A stretch of DNA of 64,000 nt. It comes from Candidatus Woesearchaeota archaeon. GTDB lineage: Archaea; Nanobdellota; Nanobdellia; Woesearchaeales; JACPBO01. Under the pieces are notes generated by a model. The model saw only the letters and a list, made by a program, of their open reading frames with translations, made no database searches and was not told where the DNA came from. A program made the translations under genes and the position numbers. Of the stretch, positions 52,544-60,824 are shown in pieces. The stretch's first letter is position 1. Each line of letters opens with the position of its first letter. The stretch spans positions 22,844 through 86,843 of the forward strand of contig JAUSCS010000009.1 of assembly GCA_030651135.1 (NCBI GenBank), given 5' to 3'.

Positions 52544-54037
52544 TTACACAACAACAACGCCATCAAACTCTTTAATAGCTGAAACAGCATAATCCAGCTT
52601 TCTCTGGCTTTCTGCGTATACTGTAAATAATGTTTCGTCTTTATTCACTTTATCGCCGACATGCTTGTAAAGATAAACACCTGCTCCCTTGTTCTGCGGA
52701 GCGCCTGCAATCCTTGCGATCTTTGATATTGAATGATTATTCACAATCTTAACAACACCTTGTTTTGGCGAAAGCACAGTATAGGCAAACTCGCCGATTT
52801 TTATGTCCTGCGGCATAATTTCTTTTCCGCCCTGCGCTTTTATTATTTCAATAAATTTTTTGTAAGCTCTTCCATCATTCACTATTTCAGATGCCTTTTT
52901 CAGGCCCTCTCCCTTCTTCGCTTTATACCCCATTTCAAGCATCATACCGGCCATATTCAGTGCTTTTATTCTCAAATCCTGAGGCCCTCTGGGATCATTT
53001 CTTAAAATCCATAAAACATCACGAGCTTCAAGGCTAGGCCCGATTCCATTTCCTATTGGCTGCGTACCATCAGTTAAAATAACTTTAACAATCATCCCAA
53101 GAGCTTTAGCTAATTCTTCAAAGCCTTTTTTTAACTGCAATGCTGATTTTTTATCCAAAATTTTCGAGCCCTTGCCATAAGGAATGTCAATCAAAACATG
53201 CGTTGCAGAAACAGATGCCTTTTTTGCCATAACGCTGGCAAGCAGCTGCGATTTTGCATCTATTGCAAGAGGCTTTTCAACTTTTATAATCTTATCATCT
53301 GCAGGAGCGAGATTAAGAGCGCCGCCCCACACTAAGCAGCCATTTGTCTTTTCAACAATCTTTTTCATTTTAGGAAGCGGAATATTGACATTTGTAAGCA
53401 CTTCAACTGTGTCTGCTGTTCCAGCTGGGCTTGTAATGCTTCTCGAAGATGTTTTTGGAATTGCCAGGCCAGCTGCTGCAATTATCGGAACTATTATCAT
53501 TGTTGTCCTGTTGCCAGCAACGCCTCCAGAGCAGTGCTTGTCCATAACAGGATAGCGGTGCAGCTTTAGCTTTTCGCCAATGTCAGACATTGCCTTTGTC
53601 AGCAAAGCTGTCTCTTTCATAGTCATTCTGTTTGCATAGCAGGCAGAAACAAAGTAAGTGAGCTCTATTGCATCCAGCTTGTTGTGCACAATGTCCCACA
53701 CAATCTGGTCAATCTCTTTTTTATCCAAAGTTCCGCCGTCAAGCTTCTTCTTTATAAAATCAATTGACAAGGGCTTTCTTGCAGGAATTATCTCAACAAT
53801 GTCCTTGTCTTTTAAATTCAGAGAATCAATAATCTCCTCGAAAACTCCGATATGCCCTTCTGGAACAGCCTTTTCGCTTTCTGCAATATCAAGCACAACA
53901 GTTTCAAGCTTGTTTCCTTTTTTTATTTTAATCCTGTCCAATGCATGCAAATCCATTTTTGCAGCATCTTTTTGGTTGAGTATTGCCACTAAAACATCCC
54001 CTGTTGCAATATCCATGTCTTTGACAATTAATTTCAT
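52544..54037 (-). CDS. AMP phosphorylase (thymidine phosphorylase family, archaeal long form)
   Basis: DKHCSGGVAGNRTTMIIVPIIAAAGL matches the pyrimidine-nucleoside phosphorylase signature. The N-terminal extension and 497-aa length are typical of archaeal AMPpase. Confidence 0.75.
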   Translation of the reverse strand: MKLIVKDMDIATGDVLVAILNQKDAAKMDLHALDRIKIKKGNKLETVVLDIAESEKAVPEGHIGVFEEIIDSLNLKDKDIVEIIPARKPLSIDFIKKKLDGGTLDKKEIDQIVWDIVHNKLDAIELTYFVSACYANRMTMKETALLTKAMSDIGEKLKLHRYPVMDKHCSGGVAGNRTTMIIVPIIAAAGLAIPKTSSRSITSPAGTADTVEVLTNVNIPLPKMKKIVEKTNGCLVWGGALNLAPADDKIIKVEKPLAIDAKSQLLASVMAKKASVSATHVLIDIPYGKGSKILDKKSALQLKKGFEELAKALGMIVKVILTDGTQPIGNGIGPSLEARDVLWILRNDPRGPQDLRIKALNMAGMMLEMGYKAKKGEGLKKASEIVNDGRAYKKFIEIIKAQGGKEIMPQDIKIGEFAYTVLSPKQGVVKIVNNHSISKIARIAGAPQNKGAGVYLYKHVGDKVNKDETLFTVYAESQRKLDYAVSAIKEFDGVVVV

Positions 54038-55044
54038 TTTTGGATAGACTCCCTATAGAATTCAATTATGTTTACAAACAATGTCATGATGGCTGGGCCT
54101 ATCAGCACGCCTACAAAGCCGAACAAAACCAGGCCGCCTAAAACTCCGATAAGCACAAAAACAGGATGAAGCTTTGACCTGTCGCCTATAATTTTCGGCT
54201 TTATTATGTTATCAATGGTTGAAATCAGCAGCGCGCCATAAATTAAAAGCCCGATGCTCAGAAAGATTTCAGTGTTGCTGCCGGCATAATAGCCGTTGAT
54301 TAGCTTAATTAATGCAGCTGGCAGCCAGACAACCCATGACCCTACAAAAGGTATCATTGCTGCAATCGTCAGTATAAGGGCCCAGAATATAGGATGATCA
54401 ATCCTGAAAATATAGAATCCTATCAAGCCTATTATGCCCTGGATAATTGAAACAATTATTGTGCAGAATACAACAGCATAAAGCATGCTCCCAATTCCCT
54501 TTTCAAGAGTCTCTTTTTGTTTTTCTTTCAGCGGAAGGATTTCTTTTATCCTTTTCAGCAGCTGCTCGCCGTTAACTAAAAGGAAGAATATTGTGAAGAG
54601 CGCAACAAACATGGATATTAGCTTTTTTGGGATGCTTAGCAAAAATCCTGAAGCCTGGTCTGATATGAAAGAAGCAGAGTCTTTTAAGAGCTGCGTTATA
54701 TAGTTATTTATGTTTTCATTGATAAAAATTTTAAAACCCTCTATGGCAAAGCCGCCTTTGGCTGCGCTGTATACAGAATATGCCTGTTTGTAAAGCGCTC
54801 CTATCAGCAAAGACGCTGCTGCTATTGAGATCAGCAATATGAGAATAACTGTTATTGATGCAGATAAGTATGGCCTTTTTGTTTTTGCCAGAAGCCATCT
54901 GTAAACCGGATAAAAAATGTAAGCAACAACTGCAGCTGTAAGCAATGCTTCAATGAATGGCCTTGCAATTAAAAAAGCAAGAATGAAGATGACAACAGCC
55001 AAAACAATGAAAAACACGCCCCTGTATTGCTTGATTTGAAACAC
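54034..55044 (-). CDS. AI-2E family (PerM/YhhT-like) permease
   Basis: Eight predicted TM segments in the AI-2E topology. GTG start preceded by AAAGAGG. Confidence 0.65.
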   Translation of the reverse strand: MFQIKQYRGVFFIVLAVVIFILAFLIARPFIEALLTAAVVAYIFYPVYRWLLAKTKRPYLSASITVILILLISIAAASLLIGALYKQAYSVYSAAKGGFAIEGFKIFINENINNYITQLLKDSASFISDQASGFLLSIPKKLISMFVALFTIFFLLVNGEQLLKRIKEILPLKEKQKETLEKGIGSMLYAVVFCTIIVSIIQGIIGLIGFYIFRIDHPIFWALILTIAAMIPFVGSWVVWLPAALIKLINGYYAGSNTEIFLSIGLLIYGALLISTIDNIIKPKIIGDRSKLHPVFVLIGVLGGLVLFGFVGVLIGPAIMTLFVNIIEFYRESIQK

Positions 55045-55061: not shown

Positions 55062-55214
55062 TGGGCCCAGCCGGACTTGAACCGACGACATTCACCAGTT
55101 TGAACGTTTTACGCTAGTCAAGGCAGCGTCACTCGCTTCGCTCGTTCCGAGCCTCGACTCACTTCGCTACGCTCGTTCGTCAAGGTGACATCATAGCCAC
55201 TAGATCATGAGCCC
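55062..55214 (-). tRNA. tRNA-Val (anticodon GAC) with 80-nt intron after position 37
   Basis: Folded by hand. Acceptor GGGCUCA/UGGGCCC pairs 7/7 (one G-U), discriminator A. D-loop AGUGG. Anticodon stem UCACC/GGUGA, loop UUGACG|U. T-arm GUCGG-UUCAAGU-CCGGC. Exons 55178-55214 and 55062-55097. The intron 55098-55177 is GC-rich, and AACG/CGUU pairing at its ends fits a bulge-helix-bulge. Confidence 0.7.
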
Positions 55215-56839: not shown

Positions 56840-57187
56840 CTAGCTCCCATAATACGAGCTTTTCTTATAACCCAGCTTCAATCTCGCATCATCATATGCC
56901 TTATGATCCTCCAAGATTATCTCGATGAAATCTTTGTTTTGCTCTTTGATCAGTACAGCTCTCACATCAGAGGCTATTTTCCTGAAGAACACATACAAAT
57001 GCTTAAATTCCTTCTTTGAAGGGACAGAGCCAAGCTCCTTGTTTTCTTTGCATCTTCTGCACCACTCGATAAGGTCATTTAACATCCCTTCTTTTAATTT
57101 GACAATGTAATCATCAAAATTTTTGTTAAACTTTATTTGGTTTCCAAAGATCTCAAGCAATTTCTGCTTTGCTTTTTTGTCTTCCAT
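56840..57187 (-). CDS. Small helical protein, likely HEPN/DUF86-like partner of the upstream NTase
   Basis: 115 aa. Overlaps the end of the NTase gene 57153-58028 by 35 nt, like the other pairs. Confidence 0.3.
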   Translation of the reverse strand: MEDKKAKQKLLEIFGNQIKFNKNFDDYIVKLKEGMLNDLIEWCRRCKENKELGSVPSKKEFKHLYVFFRKIASDVRAVLIKEQNKDFIEIILEDHKAYDDARLKLGYKKSSYYGS

Positions 57188-58028
57188 AAATCATCTCCTC
57201 GTATGCGTTCTTGAATCTTACTAAATGGCTGTTTGGCTTGATGTTCTTAATCGATTCTTCAAGCGTTTTTATATAAGTATGGACTTCGACGTATAAATAT
57301 GTTTCTGAAAAAATATTTTTGCACAATTCTTTCATAAGCATATCGAGATGCTCTAGTTTGATTTTTGATGATATTTCTTTCAGCTCCCTGCCATTAAGCA
57401 GCCTGTTCCTGCAAAAAAGATTGTAATCGAAGACAAGCCTTCTTACAGACTCCGGCTTTTTTTCTTTCCTCATATGCTCAATTACTGCCTCATGGTATGT
57501 TCCCATCAGCCTTGATAAAGAGGGCTTTTTCTTCTTCGCGTTATTTGGTATCATGAAATTAGATGCTGAAATCAATGAAGCTGACTGAAATACAGGATTG
57601 GTTAATCTTTTCTCTGATAGGAAGATCACGTGCTTATTTTCATCCCATTTTTCCTTGTAGCCCTTTTTTGCAATGATAAAAACATCAATATCATTAAATT
57701 CCTTGGAGAACAAAAAAGAGCCGGCTATGAAGACTTTGTCGTGCTTCTTTGAATAGCCGTCTATGAGCTTCTTGGCTTCCGCTAATCTTGCCGGAATTAT
57801 TTCACTAGATCCACTAACCCAGTATTCTCTGTCCTTTTGTTCCCTTGAAAGCGAGTCGAGTGCTTCCATCTTCTTCTTCACAGATGTGTAAAGCGACTTT
57901 TTCTCGGCATTTGAAAGTCTAAGGCGATTACTGTACTTTTTCAGAACACTGAACTGTTTTTCTGTGAATATCAGAGGAACAAATAGCTCTTCTTTCTCCG
58001 CTACTATTTTTAATATTTTTTCATTCAT
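57153..58028 (-). CDS. Nucleotidyltransferase-domain protein
   Basis: KVFIAGSFLFSKEFNDIDVFIIA matches the GS...DxD motif. Confidence 0.5.
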   Translation of the reverse strand: MNEKILKIVAEKEELFVPLIFTEKQFSVLKKYSNRLRLSNAEKKSLYTSVKKKMEALDSLSREQKDREYWVSGSSEIIPARLAEAKKLIDGYSKKHDKVFIAGSFLFSKEFNDIDVFIIAKKGYKEKWDENKHVIFLSEKRLTNPVFQSASLISASNFMIPNNAKKKKPSLSRLMGTYHEAVIEHMRKEKKPESVRRLVFDYNLFCRNRLLNGRELKEISSKIKLEHLDMLMKELCKNIFSETYLYVEVHTYIKTLEESIKNIKPNSHLVRFKNAYEEMIYGRQKSKAEIA

Positions 58029-58107: not shown

Positions 58108-58292
58108 TGCGGAGGAAGGGACTCTCAAATCCTGAGGATTTGCTTTTCCTCTGGGATATTCGAACCCTCGGACCCATTCCTTGCCAAGGCAACTCGCATG
58201 CCCAGACTCTAAGGGACAGGATGTCCTAGCTGGTCTTAAGTATCGCACCACATCTGAGTCCTGCGCGTTTGACCAGGCTTCGCTACCTCCGC
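58108..58292 (-). tRNA. tRNA-Leu (anticodon CAG) interrupted by probably three introns (anticodon loop, variable region, T-loop)
   Basis: Acceptor GCGGAGG/CCUCCGC 7/7, discriminator A. D-arm GCGA-AGCCUGGUCAA-ACGC. Anticodon stem CAGGA/UCCUG, loop CUCAGA, with a 30-nt insert before A38. A T-arm reading GAGGG-UUCGAAU-...-CCCUU forms only if a 37-nt insert (AUCCCAGAGG...GAGAGU) is removed. A further roughly 33 nt must leave the variable region to give a class-II Leu arm. Confidence 0.5.
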
Positions 58293-58341: not shown

Positions 58342-58890
58342 CTAAGCTTCTTCCTTGCAGTCCATGCACATCAGAACGCCGTCAAGATCCGTGACTTTCT
58401 CAGCGTATTTGCCGCATATCTGGCATACGCCTTCTGACGCCTTTCGCTTGCCTAATCGCTTTCTTTCCTCTTCTCTTATTTCGAATTTTTCAACCAGAAG
58501 ATCAAACAATTGCGGCTCTATTTTAAGTACATCTTTTAATGTAAGCAATCCGATGAATTTTTTACCGTAAATAACAGGCAAGTGCCTTATGTTTGAGTCT
58601 CTCATCTTAAGCAAAGCATCAAAAATATCTGCTTCAGGGCTGATTGACACCATATTTATTTCCATATAATCCCCGACTTTCGACTTAGAAGCATCAATGC
58701 CCTTCGCAACAGCTTTTCTGACAATGTCCTGCTCTGTTATTATGCCCTGCAATTCTTCTGCTTTTTTGATCAGCAATGCGCCAACATGCTTCTCAGCCAT
58801 GAGCTTGGCGCAATCCTGCAAACTCATTCCAGAAGTGATTGTAATTGGATTTTCCGTCATTGCATCGCAGACTTTAAAGCCGGTTTTCAT
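58342..58890 (-). CDS. CBS-pair protein with C-terminal zinc ribbon
   Basis: Two CBS motifs (VGALLIKK..., HLPVIYGKKFIGLLTLKDV) and a C-terminal CQICGKY...CMDCKEEA. Confidence 0.55.
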   Translation of the reverse strand: MKTGFKVCDAMTENPITITSGMSLQDCAKLMAEKHVGALLIKKAEELQGIITEQDIVRKAVAKGIDASKSKVGDYMEINMVSISPEADIFDALLKMRDSNIRHLPVIYGKKFIGLLTLKDVLKIEPQLFDLLVEKFEIREEERKRLGKRKASEGVCQICGKYAEKVTDLDGVLMCMDCKEEA

Positions 58891-58901
58891 TTAGTTCACC
58901 T

Positions 58902-60824
58902 TTAATAGTTTACCATAACCTCGACATCCTTGCCGAAAAATGATTTAAGGCTCTCAAATAATGGCTCTTTTATAAACACGCGCGGAGGGATTTTTTCATT
59001 CACAAGTGCTTTTTCCATTTCTTCAATTGAAGACTCTTTTGCTGCGCCCAAGCTGCCGTCTTTGTTTATAATGGCTTTTGTAATTTCCTTCTGCTCAGCA
59101 TCTATGTCATGAATGATAAACGCTTCCTTTTCGAGCAGCAAAACTTCGCCGAACTTTGTTCCGTGTTTCACTCTCACTCTGGCTTTCTCTATTTCCAGGC
59201 CGCGCTTTCTCTGGATGTATTCGATCAGGAACTTTATGAAAGAAGAGGAATCTTTCTTTACCTTTTCAACTTCCACTTTTGTGAGCTTCTTTTCATCATA
59301 ATCTTTTTTTGCCTTTATTATTTCATTCAATATTCTCAAAAATTTTGCAGGAATCTTCCCTTCAGCTATAAGCTTGTCCTCAAACATACTGACAATTTCA
59401 ACATCTGCAACTTTTTCAACGCCCTCTAATTTTAATATGTCCCTTATCATGGTTACAATCGTGTCATAAATGCGGACCATGTCTTCTTCTTCCTTTATCT
59501 TTTCTATCTGGCCGAATAATTTTTTTATTCTTTTAAGGTAATCTTCTGCATTTGTCAGCAGCTCGTCAAGCTCTTTTCCTGTGAGTGATTTTTTTGTTCC
59601 GTGCTCAAGCTCTTTTCTGACCTGGATATTCTTCTCTAAAAGCTTGATGTATTTCTCTTCAAGCATCTTTTCCTTATCAACAAATATTTCCTTCATCAAT
59701 GCAGGAGTTTCCTTAGGAGTTGGAGGCGGTATGCCAAAAAGCATCAGTGCAGCCTGGCTTGGAGTAAGTATTGCATAATAGATGTCTTCCATTCCCAGAT
59801 CCTGCAGCCTGAAATGAACTCGCTTCAGCATTTCTTCGCCTGATGACATGAACATATCAATTGCCTCTGCGCTTGGCTTTATCTTGCCCATTTTCAATAA
59901 TTGCTTCCAGGGCATAAAGATGCCCCTGTCGTAGAATGGAACACCGTCTCTGAGCAATGTGAATATTATTGGGTTTGCCTCTTTCAGGCTGTCCCAGAAA
60001 TCTGTCAGAATGTAAACCTGGATGTTCAGCTTGTTTTTAACCCCGGTTATATCGCCTGCTTCAATTCCCATGCCGATTATTATCGCCCTTAATTTGTCTT
60101 TCAATTCTGCCCTTGTCATCCGCTTGACATCTGTGTCATCAATTACAACCCAGACATCAATGTCAGATGTTTTTGTTGCCCTGCCCTGAACTAATGAGCC
60201 TGCCAAAACATAAGAAACAATGTAGCGCTCGAATTTCTTCAGCACCATTGATTTGTGTATTTCGGCTATTTTTATTGCTGAAAGCATTCCAAGATCATAA
60301 ACAGGGGCAGACATTGCAATAAGCTGCAATAAGTCATATTTTGCATCATAGCAGCTCTGCCAAAGCTCCGACAGAATCACTATTTCAGGAGTCAAAGACT
60401 TGTCAACATCCTCGGCCATCTTTGTTATTATTGCAGAAAGCTTTGTTGCCAGCTCCTGCTTTGACATCTTCTGGCTGTCAGAATCATCAACCAATACAAG
60501 AACATTTATTTTTTCTGTACCTTCTTTTTTCTCTTCCTGTTTTTCACTGGTTTTTTCTTTTGGATCAATATATTCTTCTGGCTGCGCCTGAGTAGGTTTT
60601 TCCTCGCCTTTCCTCTGCGGCGGCAGCAATGCGATCCCCATGATATATTTGTCGAACTTTTTAAGAACTTCTTTCTGGAACCTGTCAATCTTTTCCTTTA
60701 TTTCCTTTATCTTTTCCTGGGCTTCTTTTGGGAGATTTTCAGGGATCTTTAATGCCAATTCATTACCTGATTTTTGCTTCTCTTCAGAATTTTTTTTATT
60801 TTCCTTTTCTTCTTTCTTTGCCAT
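58902..60824 (-). CDS. Large (640 aa) protein with two nucleotidyltransferase-like modules and helical domains
   Basis: Lys/Glu-rich N-terminus. A first degenerate NTase (INVLVLVDDSDS). A second clear NTase (AGSLVQGRATKTSDIDVWVVIDD), each followed by helical segments. Confidence 0.4.
   Translation of the reverse strand: MAKKEEKENKKNSEEKQKSGNELALKIPENLPKEAQEKIKEIKEKIDRFQKEVLKKFDKYIMGIALLPPQRKGEEKPTQAQPEEYIDPKEKTSEKQEEKKEGTEKINVLVLVDDSDSQKMSKQELATKLSAIITKMAEDVDKSLTPEIVILSELWQSCYDAKYDLLQLIAMSAPVYDLGMLSAIKIAEIHKSMVLKKFERYIVSYVLAGSLVQGRATKTSDIDVWVVIDDTDVKRMTRAELKDKLRAIIIGMGIEAGDITGVKNKLNIQVYILTDFWDSLKEANPIIFTLLRDGVPFYDRGIFMPWKQLLKMGKIKPSAEAIDMFMSSGEEMLKRVHFRLQDLGMEDIYYAILTPSQAALMLFGIPPPTPKETPALMKEIFVDKEKMLEEKYIKLLEKNIQVRKELEHGTKKSLTGKELDELLTNAEDYLKRIKKLFGQIEKIKEEEDMVRIYDTIVTMIRDILKLEGVEKVADVEIVSMFEDKLIAEGKIPAKFLRILNEIIKAKKDYDEKKLTKVEVEKVKKDSSSFIKFLIEYIQRKRGLEIEKARVRVKHGTKFGEVLLLEKEAFIIHDIDAEQKEITKAIINKDGSLGAAKESSIEEMEKALVNEKIPPRVFIKEPLFESLKSFFGKDVEVMVNY

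Follow-up and report, generated by a model that had tools for sequence, protein, structure and literature searches.

Fusions between a minimal nucleotidyltransferase (MNT) and a HEPN domain have been described both in toxin–antitoxin (TA) proteins and in domesticated enzymes. The fused FhepTA proteins, which have been studied experimentally, auto-oligoAMPylate (PMC13000451), while HEPN domains fused to an MNT have typically been domesticated as substrate-binding or regulatory domains, a route proposed for kanamycin nucleotidyltransferase (KNTase), GlnE/GlnD and DrrA (Anantharaman et al. 2013, PMC3710099). In addition, an MNT fused to HEPN makes up the DPANN-specific cluster cls.004259 (NEQ050), which has been reported to show 'unusual conservation' and a housekeeping context (Makarova, Wolf & Koonin 2019, PMC6393860). 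Here we describe a 640-amino acid (aa) protein encoded in a 64,000-nucleotide (nt) stretch of the genome of a Candidatus Woesearchaeota archaeon (hereafter the window; contig JAUSCS010000009.1, positions 22,844 to 86,843, assembly GCA_030651135.1) and propose, with a probability of roughly 0.55, that it arose by domestication of an MNT–HEPN fusion and now serves as a housekeeping nucleotidyltransferase (NTase), possibly tuned by a CBS-pair protein encoded next to it.

All the features that we measured fit the published description of cls.004259 (MNT and HEPN in one chain, DPANN names, strong conservation and a housekeeping context), so the 640-aa protein, matched on the cluster's description and not on the NEQ050 sequence, probably belongs to it; NEQ050 is not among the 120 relatives listed by a homology search with a 363-aa short form of the family (see below). 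On the other hand, the paper's account of the cluster does not include the duplicated pseudo-NTase, the second HEPN-like bundle, the C-terminal domain, the CBS partner or the linkage to rpl35Ae that we report here. To our knowledge, no earlier description exists of the duplicated, four-domain build of the Woesearchaeota/Pacearchaeota branch, in which one NTase is dead and a second HEPN-like bundle is present, nor of the RpoD-level conservation, the rpl35Ae linkage across divergent DPANN lineages or the CBS/zinc-ribbon partner. An earlier annotation of the window made from the sequence alone (the original prediction) held that the architecture matches none known; this is only partly right: the DPANN MNT–HEPN cluster (PMC6393860) and FhepTA (PMC13000451) were already in the literature.

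The protein is encoded by an open reading frame (ORF) at 58902..60824 on the minus strand, where all the genes of the region lie, and starts with an ATG; the MAKK N-terminus is the start shared among the aligned homologues. Close inspection reveals, in order, a Lys/Glu-rich N-terminal tail, a pseudo-NTase, an intact NTase, a HEPN domain, a HEPN-like bundle and an α/β C-terminal domain (Table 1). The intact NTase, which the original prediction had recognised by its GS...DIDVWV motif, is the only one detected by Pfam (NTP_transf_2, PF01909; residues 197-244, 24.8 bits against a 21-bit cut-off), and G209, S210 and D221-x-D223 are invariant in an alignment of 30 close homologues. The domain that precedes it, also foreseen as a degenerate NTase, retains the ancestry of the active copy in both sequence and fold: residues ~100-185 align to residues 217-305 of the same protein (internal BLASTP, E=3e-15), while residues 33-178 adopt an NTase-type fold in the AlphaFold 2 (AF2) model, with a secondary structure that parallels that of residues 180-310. 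Because an insert has replaced the GS…DxD loop and 'KIN' stands in place of 'DID' ('KINVLVLVDDSDS' versus 'DIDVWVVIDDTDV' in the alignment), this N-terminal copy is, to judge by its sequence, catalytically dead. The predicted Lys/Glu-rich tail is likewise present and is poorly conserved, with 34% identity to the reference among close homologues and 15% among far ones. A helical region had been expected after each NTase; two helical bundles do exist, but they do not alternate with the NTases, as both follow the active copy. With two NTase and two HEPN-like domains, partly degenerated, the chain bears out the notion of two TA-type modules fused into one polypeptide.

Table 1 Coordinates (window numbering) and features of the 640-aa protein and its adjoining elements
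Feature	Coordinates	Strand	Description
TATA-like box TTTATAAA	60863..60870	-	~40-46 nt upstream of the ATG of the 640-aa gene; found by sequence inspection
N-terminal tail, residues 1-32	60729..60824	-	Lys/Glu-rich, predicted disordered; pLDDT (predicted local distance difference test) <50 for residues 1-26
Pseudo-NTase, residues 33-179	60288..60728	-	Internal duplicate of the active domain, without GS and DxD
Disordered K/E/P/Q insert, residues 72-102	60519-60611	-	Occupies the site of the GS…DxD loop in the pseudo-NTase
Active Pol-beta-type minimal NTase, residues 180-312	59889..60287	-	G209 S210, D221xD223, IDDTD 228-232, D/E275
HEPN domain 1, residues 313-440	59505..59888	-	R403-K-E-L-E-H408-G409 (Rx4H-type motif); invariant PPPxPKET loop
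Second HEPN-like four-helix bundle, residues 441-548	59181..59504	-	Without the Rx4H motif
C-terminal α/β domain, residues 549-640	58905..59180	-	Six β-strands, two helices
182-aa CBS-pair protein	58342..58890	-	Pfam CBS 95.1 bits, two repeats; C-terminal CxxC-x15-CxxC ribbon
tRNA-Leu(CAG), 185 nt	58108-58292	-	Three introns; 49 nt after the CBS stop; own TATA-like box; CCA not encoded

In line with an intact active site, the catalytic residues are kept throughout the family. Across 131 close and 164 distant aligned members, G209 is present in 100% of both groups, S210 in 100% and 91%, D221 and D223 in 100% and 96%, D229, D230 and D232 in 100% and 98-99%, and D/E275 in 100% and 92%, and the active NTase is the most conserved segment of the protein (identity 91% in the close and 62% in the distant group).

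Searching the PDB by sequence with the 640-aa protein or its family profile gave no significant match, and only fold searches were informative: the best structural matches of the NTase part in Foldseek are DrrA, MNT antitoxins, KNTase/ANT, LinB and GlnE. The likeness to KNTase ANT(4'), AadA, ANT(9) and LinB, in which an NTase is joined to a HEPN-derived C-terminal substrate-binding domain, lies at the level of the fold (ANT(9) NCBIfam 18 bits against a cut-off of 340; no KNTase_C Pfam match) and, in contrast to these aminoglycoside and lincosamide NTases, the 640-aa protein retains the HEPN motif and has the distribution of a housekeeping gene instead of a resistance gene. GlnE alternates NTase-helical-NTase-helical with both NTases active, whereas the arrangement here is NTase'-NTase-HEPN-HEPN' with one of them active; the 640-aa protein does not belong to the Pfam families GlnE, GlnD_UR_UTase or DUF294. 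The uncharacterised DUF294 (PF03445)/COG2905 proteins combine a cyclic nucleotide-binding domain, a CBS pair, an NTase and a HEPN-clan domain in one chain. A CBS pair, a Pol-beta NTase and a HEPN-like domain (DUF294_C has been placed in the HEPN clan, PMC3710099) are thus linked in both cases, there by fusion and here by a probable operon, although in our locus the CBS pair forms a separate protein with a zinc ribbon, and the Pfam matches to DUF294 (8 of 28 members, best E 0.0028) stay below the threshold.

The gene is widespread in its lineage. More than 4,193 homologues, near full-length and ~70% identical, are present in the databases; the best 120 are 606-660 aa long and 67-75% identical over the full length (save for one 97%-identical NCBI entry), and the named sources among them are metagenome-assembled genomes (MAGs) of Woesearchaeota or Nanoarchaeota. 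When GTDB was scanned with a single genome for each species, at least 526 genomes had a relative, and of 1.84 billion representatives at 50% identity only 835 clusters reach E<1e-3. Distant full-length orthologues (25-58% identity) are labelled Woesearchaeota, Pacearchaeota, Nanoarchaeota, Nanoarchaeia or 'DPANN group'; overall, wherever the source name is informative it reads Woesearchaeota, Pacearchaeota, Nanoarchaeota, Aenigmarchaeota, Parvarchaeota or 'DPANN group', the remainder being generic ('archaeon') or placeholders. Many loci that are Woesearchaeota-like by marker and neighbours carry the title 'uncultured Methanosarcinales archaeon' (binchicken/SPIRE-type MAGs), apparently a placeholder label. 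Each of the best 80 loci belongs to a different assembly, which is consistent with one copy per genome, as far as these 80 loci, and not complete genomes, can tell.

The rate of evolution tells the same story. In six genomes that share the neighbouring ribosomal genes, the mean identity of the 640-aa protein (84.9%) equals or exceeds that of RpoD (84.3%), S13 (73.7%) and S4 (64.8%), with S11 at 93.9%, and over 150 genome pairs the protein is 71% identical against 53% for its CBS neighbour. The gene therefore behaves as a core informational gene and not as a TA or defence gene. A widely conserved, single-copy housekeeping factor is also what the original prediction, in proposing a nucleotide-signalling system, had regarded as contrary to its own proposal, and the lineage-wide distribution and RpoD-level conservation seen here are of that kind.

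Not all members share the full architecture. Short forms of 330-443 aa that have no C-terminal domain occur in Aenigmarchaeota, Parvarchaeota and other Nanoarchaeota, and the two that we aligned (363 and 441 aa) cover only the active NTase and the HEPN region. Some divergent genomes carry a 253-270-aa NTase and HEPN paralogue two genes upstream, while in six proteins of 1083-1340 aa (P0186, P0191, P0198, P0206, P0214 and P0224) an N-terminal TPR extension of ~700 aa has been added, which suggests protein–protein targeting.

We examined the surroundings of the best 80 close loci, together with those of distant orthologues, and found the gene embedded among translation and RNA-processing genes. 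In 6 loci the homologue lies directly before the S13-S4-S11-RpoD operon, and eIF2γ/S6e are also among its housekeeping contexts. Among divergent members, rpl35Ae is the next gene in L081, L083, L086 and L089, and in L088, from Aenigmarchaeota, it lies two genes further downstream; together these loci are labelled Woesearchaeota, Pacearchaeota, Nanoarchaeota and Aenigmarchaeota. In L087 (635-8473 in locus numbering; OZ246410.1, a 774-kb genome) the exosome superoperon Rpp14-PsmA-SBDS-Rrp4-Rrp41-Rrp42-RpoK-…-PIN has the orthologue as its last-but-one gene, followed by a CBS gene. An AP_endonuc_2-like gene (550-663 aa) is found a few genes upstream in L081, L086, L088 and L089. The order in these four loci is AP_endonuc_2-like gene, short 253-270-aa MNT–HEPN paralogue (absent in L088), long MNT–HEPN gene and rpl35Ae, the labels being Woesearchaeota, Aenigmarchaeota and Nanoarchaeota (L086 is unlabelled), and trm1, tfb and rps8e come after rpl35Ae in L086 and L089.

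The commonest neighbour in the 80 close loci is the CBS/zinc-ribbon gene. Of the 69 loci with enough sequence, 30 have it as the next gene downstream, in the same orientation, and 37 have it within 3 kb; it also adjoins the distant orthologues L082 and L087. The neighbour is therefore a recurrent one, in line with the synteny that the proposal of the original prediction called for, and the presence of a CBS-pair protein with a zinc ribbon beside the large ORF is as described there. Its placement was given as immediately upstream; the two genes do adjoin, but the CBS gene, at lower coordinates on the minus strand, is transcriptionally downstream. Since the stop of the 640-aa gene is followed after an 11-nt spacer carrying an SD (Shine-Dalgarno)-like AGGTGA by the CBS gene on the same strand, the two are probably co-transcribed. 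Further upstream, inspection of the sequence places a GGTG SD-like motif between the TATA-like box and the ATG of the 640-aa gene, and TTTATAAA is a putative promoter of its own. The ribbon cysteines (C156, C159, C175 and C178) are retained in 35 of 41 homologues. Members of the TA0289 family are CBS-pair proteins fused to a Zn-ribbon-like domain. Relatives in the PDB include ST2348, MJ1225 and 3ghd ('CBS domain protein fused to a Zn-ribbon-like domain'), the last of which has the same combination of CBS pair and C-terminal Cys4 ribbon as the 182-aa neighbour; its similarity is, however, only of the generic CBS kind (E=5e-6), and its family has no known link to NTases. Judging from its domains and position, the CBS/zinc-ribbon gene probably encodes a functional partner that senses adenosine nucleotides.

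If the 640-aa protein is indeed a domesticated housekeeping NTase, an ancestral fused MNT and HEPN, which would persist as the 330-440-aa forms of Aenigmarchaeota, Parvarchaeota and Nanoarchaeota, may have gained in the Woesearchaeota/Pacearchaeota lineage an N-terminal duplicate NTase, now inactive, and an extra C-terminal α/β domain. The remaining active site would carry out Mg-dependent nucleotidyl transfer, with G209/S210 and D221/D223 (plus D/E275) binding the nucleoside triphosphate and the metal, and the HEPN dyad would provide a substrate-binding or regulatory platform, as in KNTase, GlnE or DrrA. Both the recurrence of translation and RNA-processing genes nearby and the existence of TPR-fused variants suggest that the substrate is a macromolecule, either a protein or an RNA, and the likeliest acceptor would be a hydroxyl group of a conserved translation- or RNA-associated cellular macromolecule. 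Such a role would be lineage-wide housekeeping and not addiction or defence, and the CBS-pair/zinc-ribbon protein could plausibly couple the activity to the adenine-nucleotide (energy) status. DPANN genomes are tiny and hold few lineage-specific conserved genes, and a protein of 600-plus residues with a perfect NTase site must serve something central; we infer a central role because of its RpoD-slow evolution, its ribosomal and exosome neighbours and that active site. The protein would then be a clear case of a TA module turned housekeeping enzyme. Its substrate might uncover a new modification, post-translational or of RNA, by which archaea control translation, and through the CBS partner a connection with energy sensing can be tested.

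Several observations weigh against this proposal. The full-length AlphaFold model is of moderate confidence (pLDDT 70.6 and a predicted template-modelling score of 0.46, compared with a pLDDT of 87.3 for residues 441-640 modelled alone), so its inter-domain geometry is unreliable and neither the domain packing nor the proposed cleft between NTase and HEPN is established by it. The C-terminal domain has not been assigned to a fold family. Synteny with the CBS gene reaches only ~50% and may in part be inherited gene order. Finally, since the window protein and all its close relatives keep a complete R-x4-H, HEPN RNase activity may be possible in this clade.

An unlikely alternative is that the protein is a fused type VII TA or dormancy switch like FhepTA, whose HEPN RNase (R403/H408) would cleave tRNA, rRNA or mRNA and whose NTase would silence it in cis by ATP-dependent (oligo)AMPylation, such that a fall in ATP, possibly sensed by the CBS protein, stops translation. 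The two folds do sit in one chain, as in fused proteins that auto-oligoAMPylate (PMC13000451), and the resemblance to HepT/MntA and FhepTA (SO_1440; PMC13000451, PMC7641770) extends to the placement of a GS…DxD NTase N-terminal to an Rx4H-type HEPN: the 640-aa protein has both the GS-x(10-13)-DxD spacing and a HEPN fold with Rx4-6H, Rx4H is invariant in 130 of the 131 close relatives (R403 and H408 each 99%; K404 and E407 of the motif are almost invariant as well), and translation-related neighbours would suit a translation target. The details are less favourable. R403 is kept in 64% of distant orthologues and replaced in ~36%, mostly by Tyr or Phe (29%), H408 is kept in 80%, and the motif occurs in only one of the two HEPN bundles. 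The acceptor Tyr of the type VII systems (RX4HXY) is missing, since the position His+2, which is the AMPylated Tyr in HepT toxins, is E, T or K family-wide (R-K-E-L-E-H-G-T-K-K in the window). Neither the canonical RNase dyad nor the type VII acceptor site is thus a feature of the whole family, although the window protein itself keeps R and H. With NTase residues near-invariant and the HEPN R403 often replaced, what the family conserves is NTase chemistry and not RNase chemistry. Moreover, FhepTA has 276 aa, compared with 640 aa, duplicated and degenerated domains and an extra C-terminal domain here, and the protein scores 22.7 bits with the NCBIfam MntA model NF047752, below its cut-off of 60. 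Lastly, a type VII TA gene would be expected to be patchy, multi-copy and associated with mobile elements, and TA toxins normally evolve fast, whereas this gene is neither mobile nor patchy, with one locus per assembly in the best 80, a spread across the lineage and identities like those of RpoD.

We also consider it improbable that the protein is an RNA-directed NTase (for 3'-tailing, repair or a CCA-like activity) working with the exosome or ribosome machinery, in which the HEPN dyad, the C-terminal domain and the K/E segments would bind RNA. Weak Pfam matches to MTPAP-like (the poly(A) polymerase palm) in 17 of 28 members, the location of the L087 gene behind the Rrp4-Rrp41-Rrp42 exosome operon, the ribosomal-protein neighbours, the lack of an encoded CCA in both tRNA genes of the window and the common RNA-binding role of HEPN domains all speak for such an enzyme. 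Pfam and NCBIfam detect, however, no neck or body domains of class I CCA enzymes or poly(A) polymerases, and the best fold matches of the NTase (DrrA, KNTase, GlnE, LinB and MNT) modify proteins or small molecules and are not RNA polymerases. A CCA-adding enzyme in particular was set aside, as no domain or fold match supports it.

Some archaea possess ribosome hibernation factors with CBS domains, the recently found Sri, ARC and HibA. It is conceivable, if rather doubtful, that the 640-aa protein is a core DPANN-specific translation regulator derived from a TA module, either a ribosome- or RNA-processing-associated AMPylase or an AMPylation-gated HEPN RNase, that would read the adenylate charge with its CBS partner and toggle translation between active and dormant states. 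Such a regulator would parallel these factors but act by enzymatic modification.

That the protein has no catalytic role and is a structural or ribosome-associated factor with no more than an NTase-like fold seems very unlikely to us: the pseudo-NTase copy, the degenerate second HEPN, the disordered K/E-rich segments and a very high overall conservation, typical of components of large complexes, would suit such a factor, but the near-perfect retention of every catalytic NTase residue across ~300 diverse members is hard to explain without catalysis or nucleotide binding. The proposal of the original prediction, a CD-NTase/CBASS- or cyclic oligoadenylate-type system in which the NTase would synthesise a signal nucleotide and the CBS protein would act as its sensor or as the effector, draws on the conserved adjacency of an active NTase and a nucleotide-binding CBS module and on weak Foldseek matches to CdnE (E 0.03-0.09, TM-score 0.13-0.14) and Hailong HalB, but is the least credible of all, given that the PADLOC matches at the locus are confined to generic MNT-like similarity (PDC-S09), with none to a CD-NTase, Cas10, CARF or SAVED model, that no signal-activated effector (CARF, SAVED, TIR, transmembrane or nuclease) lies beside the gene (its neighbours are the CBS/zinc-ribbon gene, a tRNA, an unrelated NTase-like ORF and surface proteins) and that a universal, extremely conserved gene among ribosomal and exosome genes is the opposite of what defence islands show. 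The locus is hence no new defence or signalling system, but a conspicuous piece of archaeal dark matter.

Further features of the surroundings are recorded here. In 23 of the 80 loci, three or four tandem paralogues of a ~180-aa protein without a Pfam match ('c0') come after the CBS or the NTase–HEPN gene (e.g. L004:8486-9712, L028:8620-10336 and L031:7841-9569); neither these paralogues nor the S13 operon is present in the window. Genes for an AI-2E-family transporter and an AMP phosphorylase (497 aa) lie downstream in the window, at 52544-55044(-), and recur close to the orthologues of L085 and L070, which indicates that a larger gene block is anciently syntenic.

The tRNA gene that the original prediction had placed next door, a three-intron tRNA-Leu, is indeed there and adjoins the module of 640-aa and CBS genes in position. 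Its introns (30 nt at 37/38, ~30 nt in the variable arm and 37 nt in the T-loop) conceal it, unspliced, from ARAGORN and from Rfam, even at E≤1, and ARAGORN calls tRNA-Leu(CAG) only after in-silico removal of the three inserts. A second tRNA gene at 55062-55214(-) (Rfam 42 bits, one 83-nt insertion in the anticodon loop, a short variable arm and no encoded CCA) is missed by ARAGORN; it lies 3 kb away and is not the three-intron tRNA-Leu. Between these tRNA genes, a 291-aa ORF (57153-58028(-)) with a GS…DIDVF NTase motif overlaps a 115-aa ORF (56840-57187(-)) by 35 nt in the manner of a TA pair. The larger one has no relatives in Pfam, NCBIfam, PADLOC or the PDB, none of the 80 related loci contains a homologue, and comparison with the short MNT–HEPN paralogue of the distant orthologue loci led us to reject their equivalence; the pair appears to have been inserted, specifically in this lineage, between tRNA-Leu and the remaining syntenic block.

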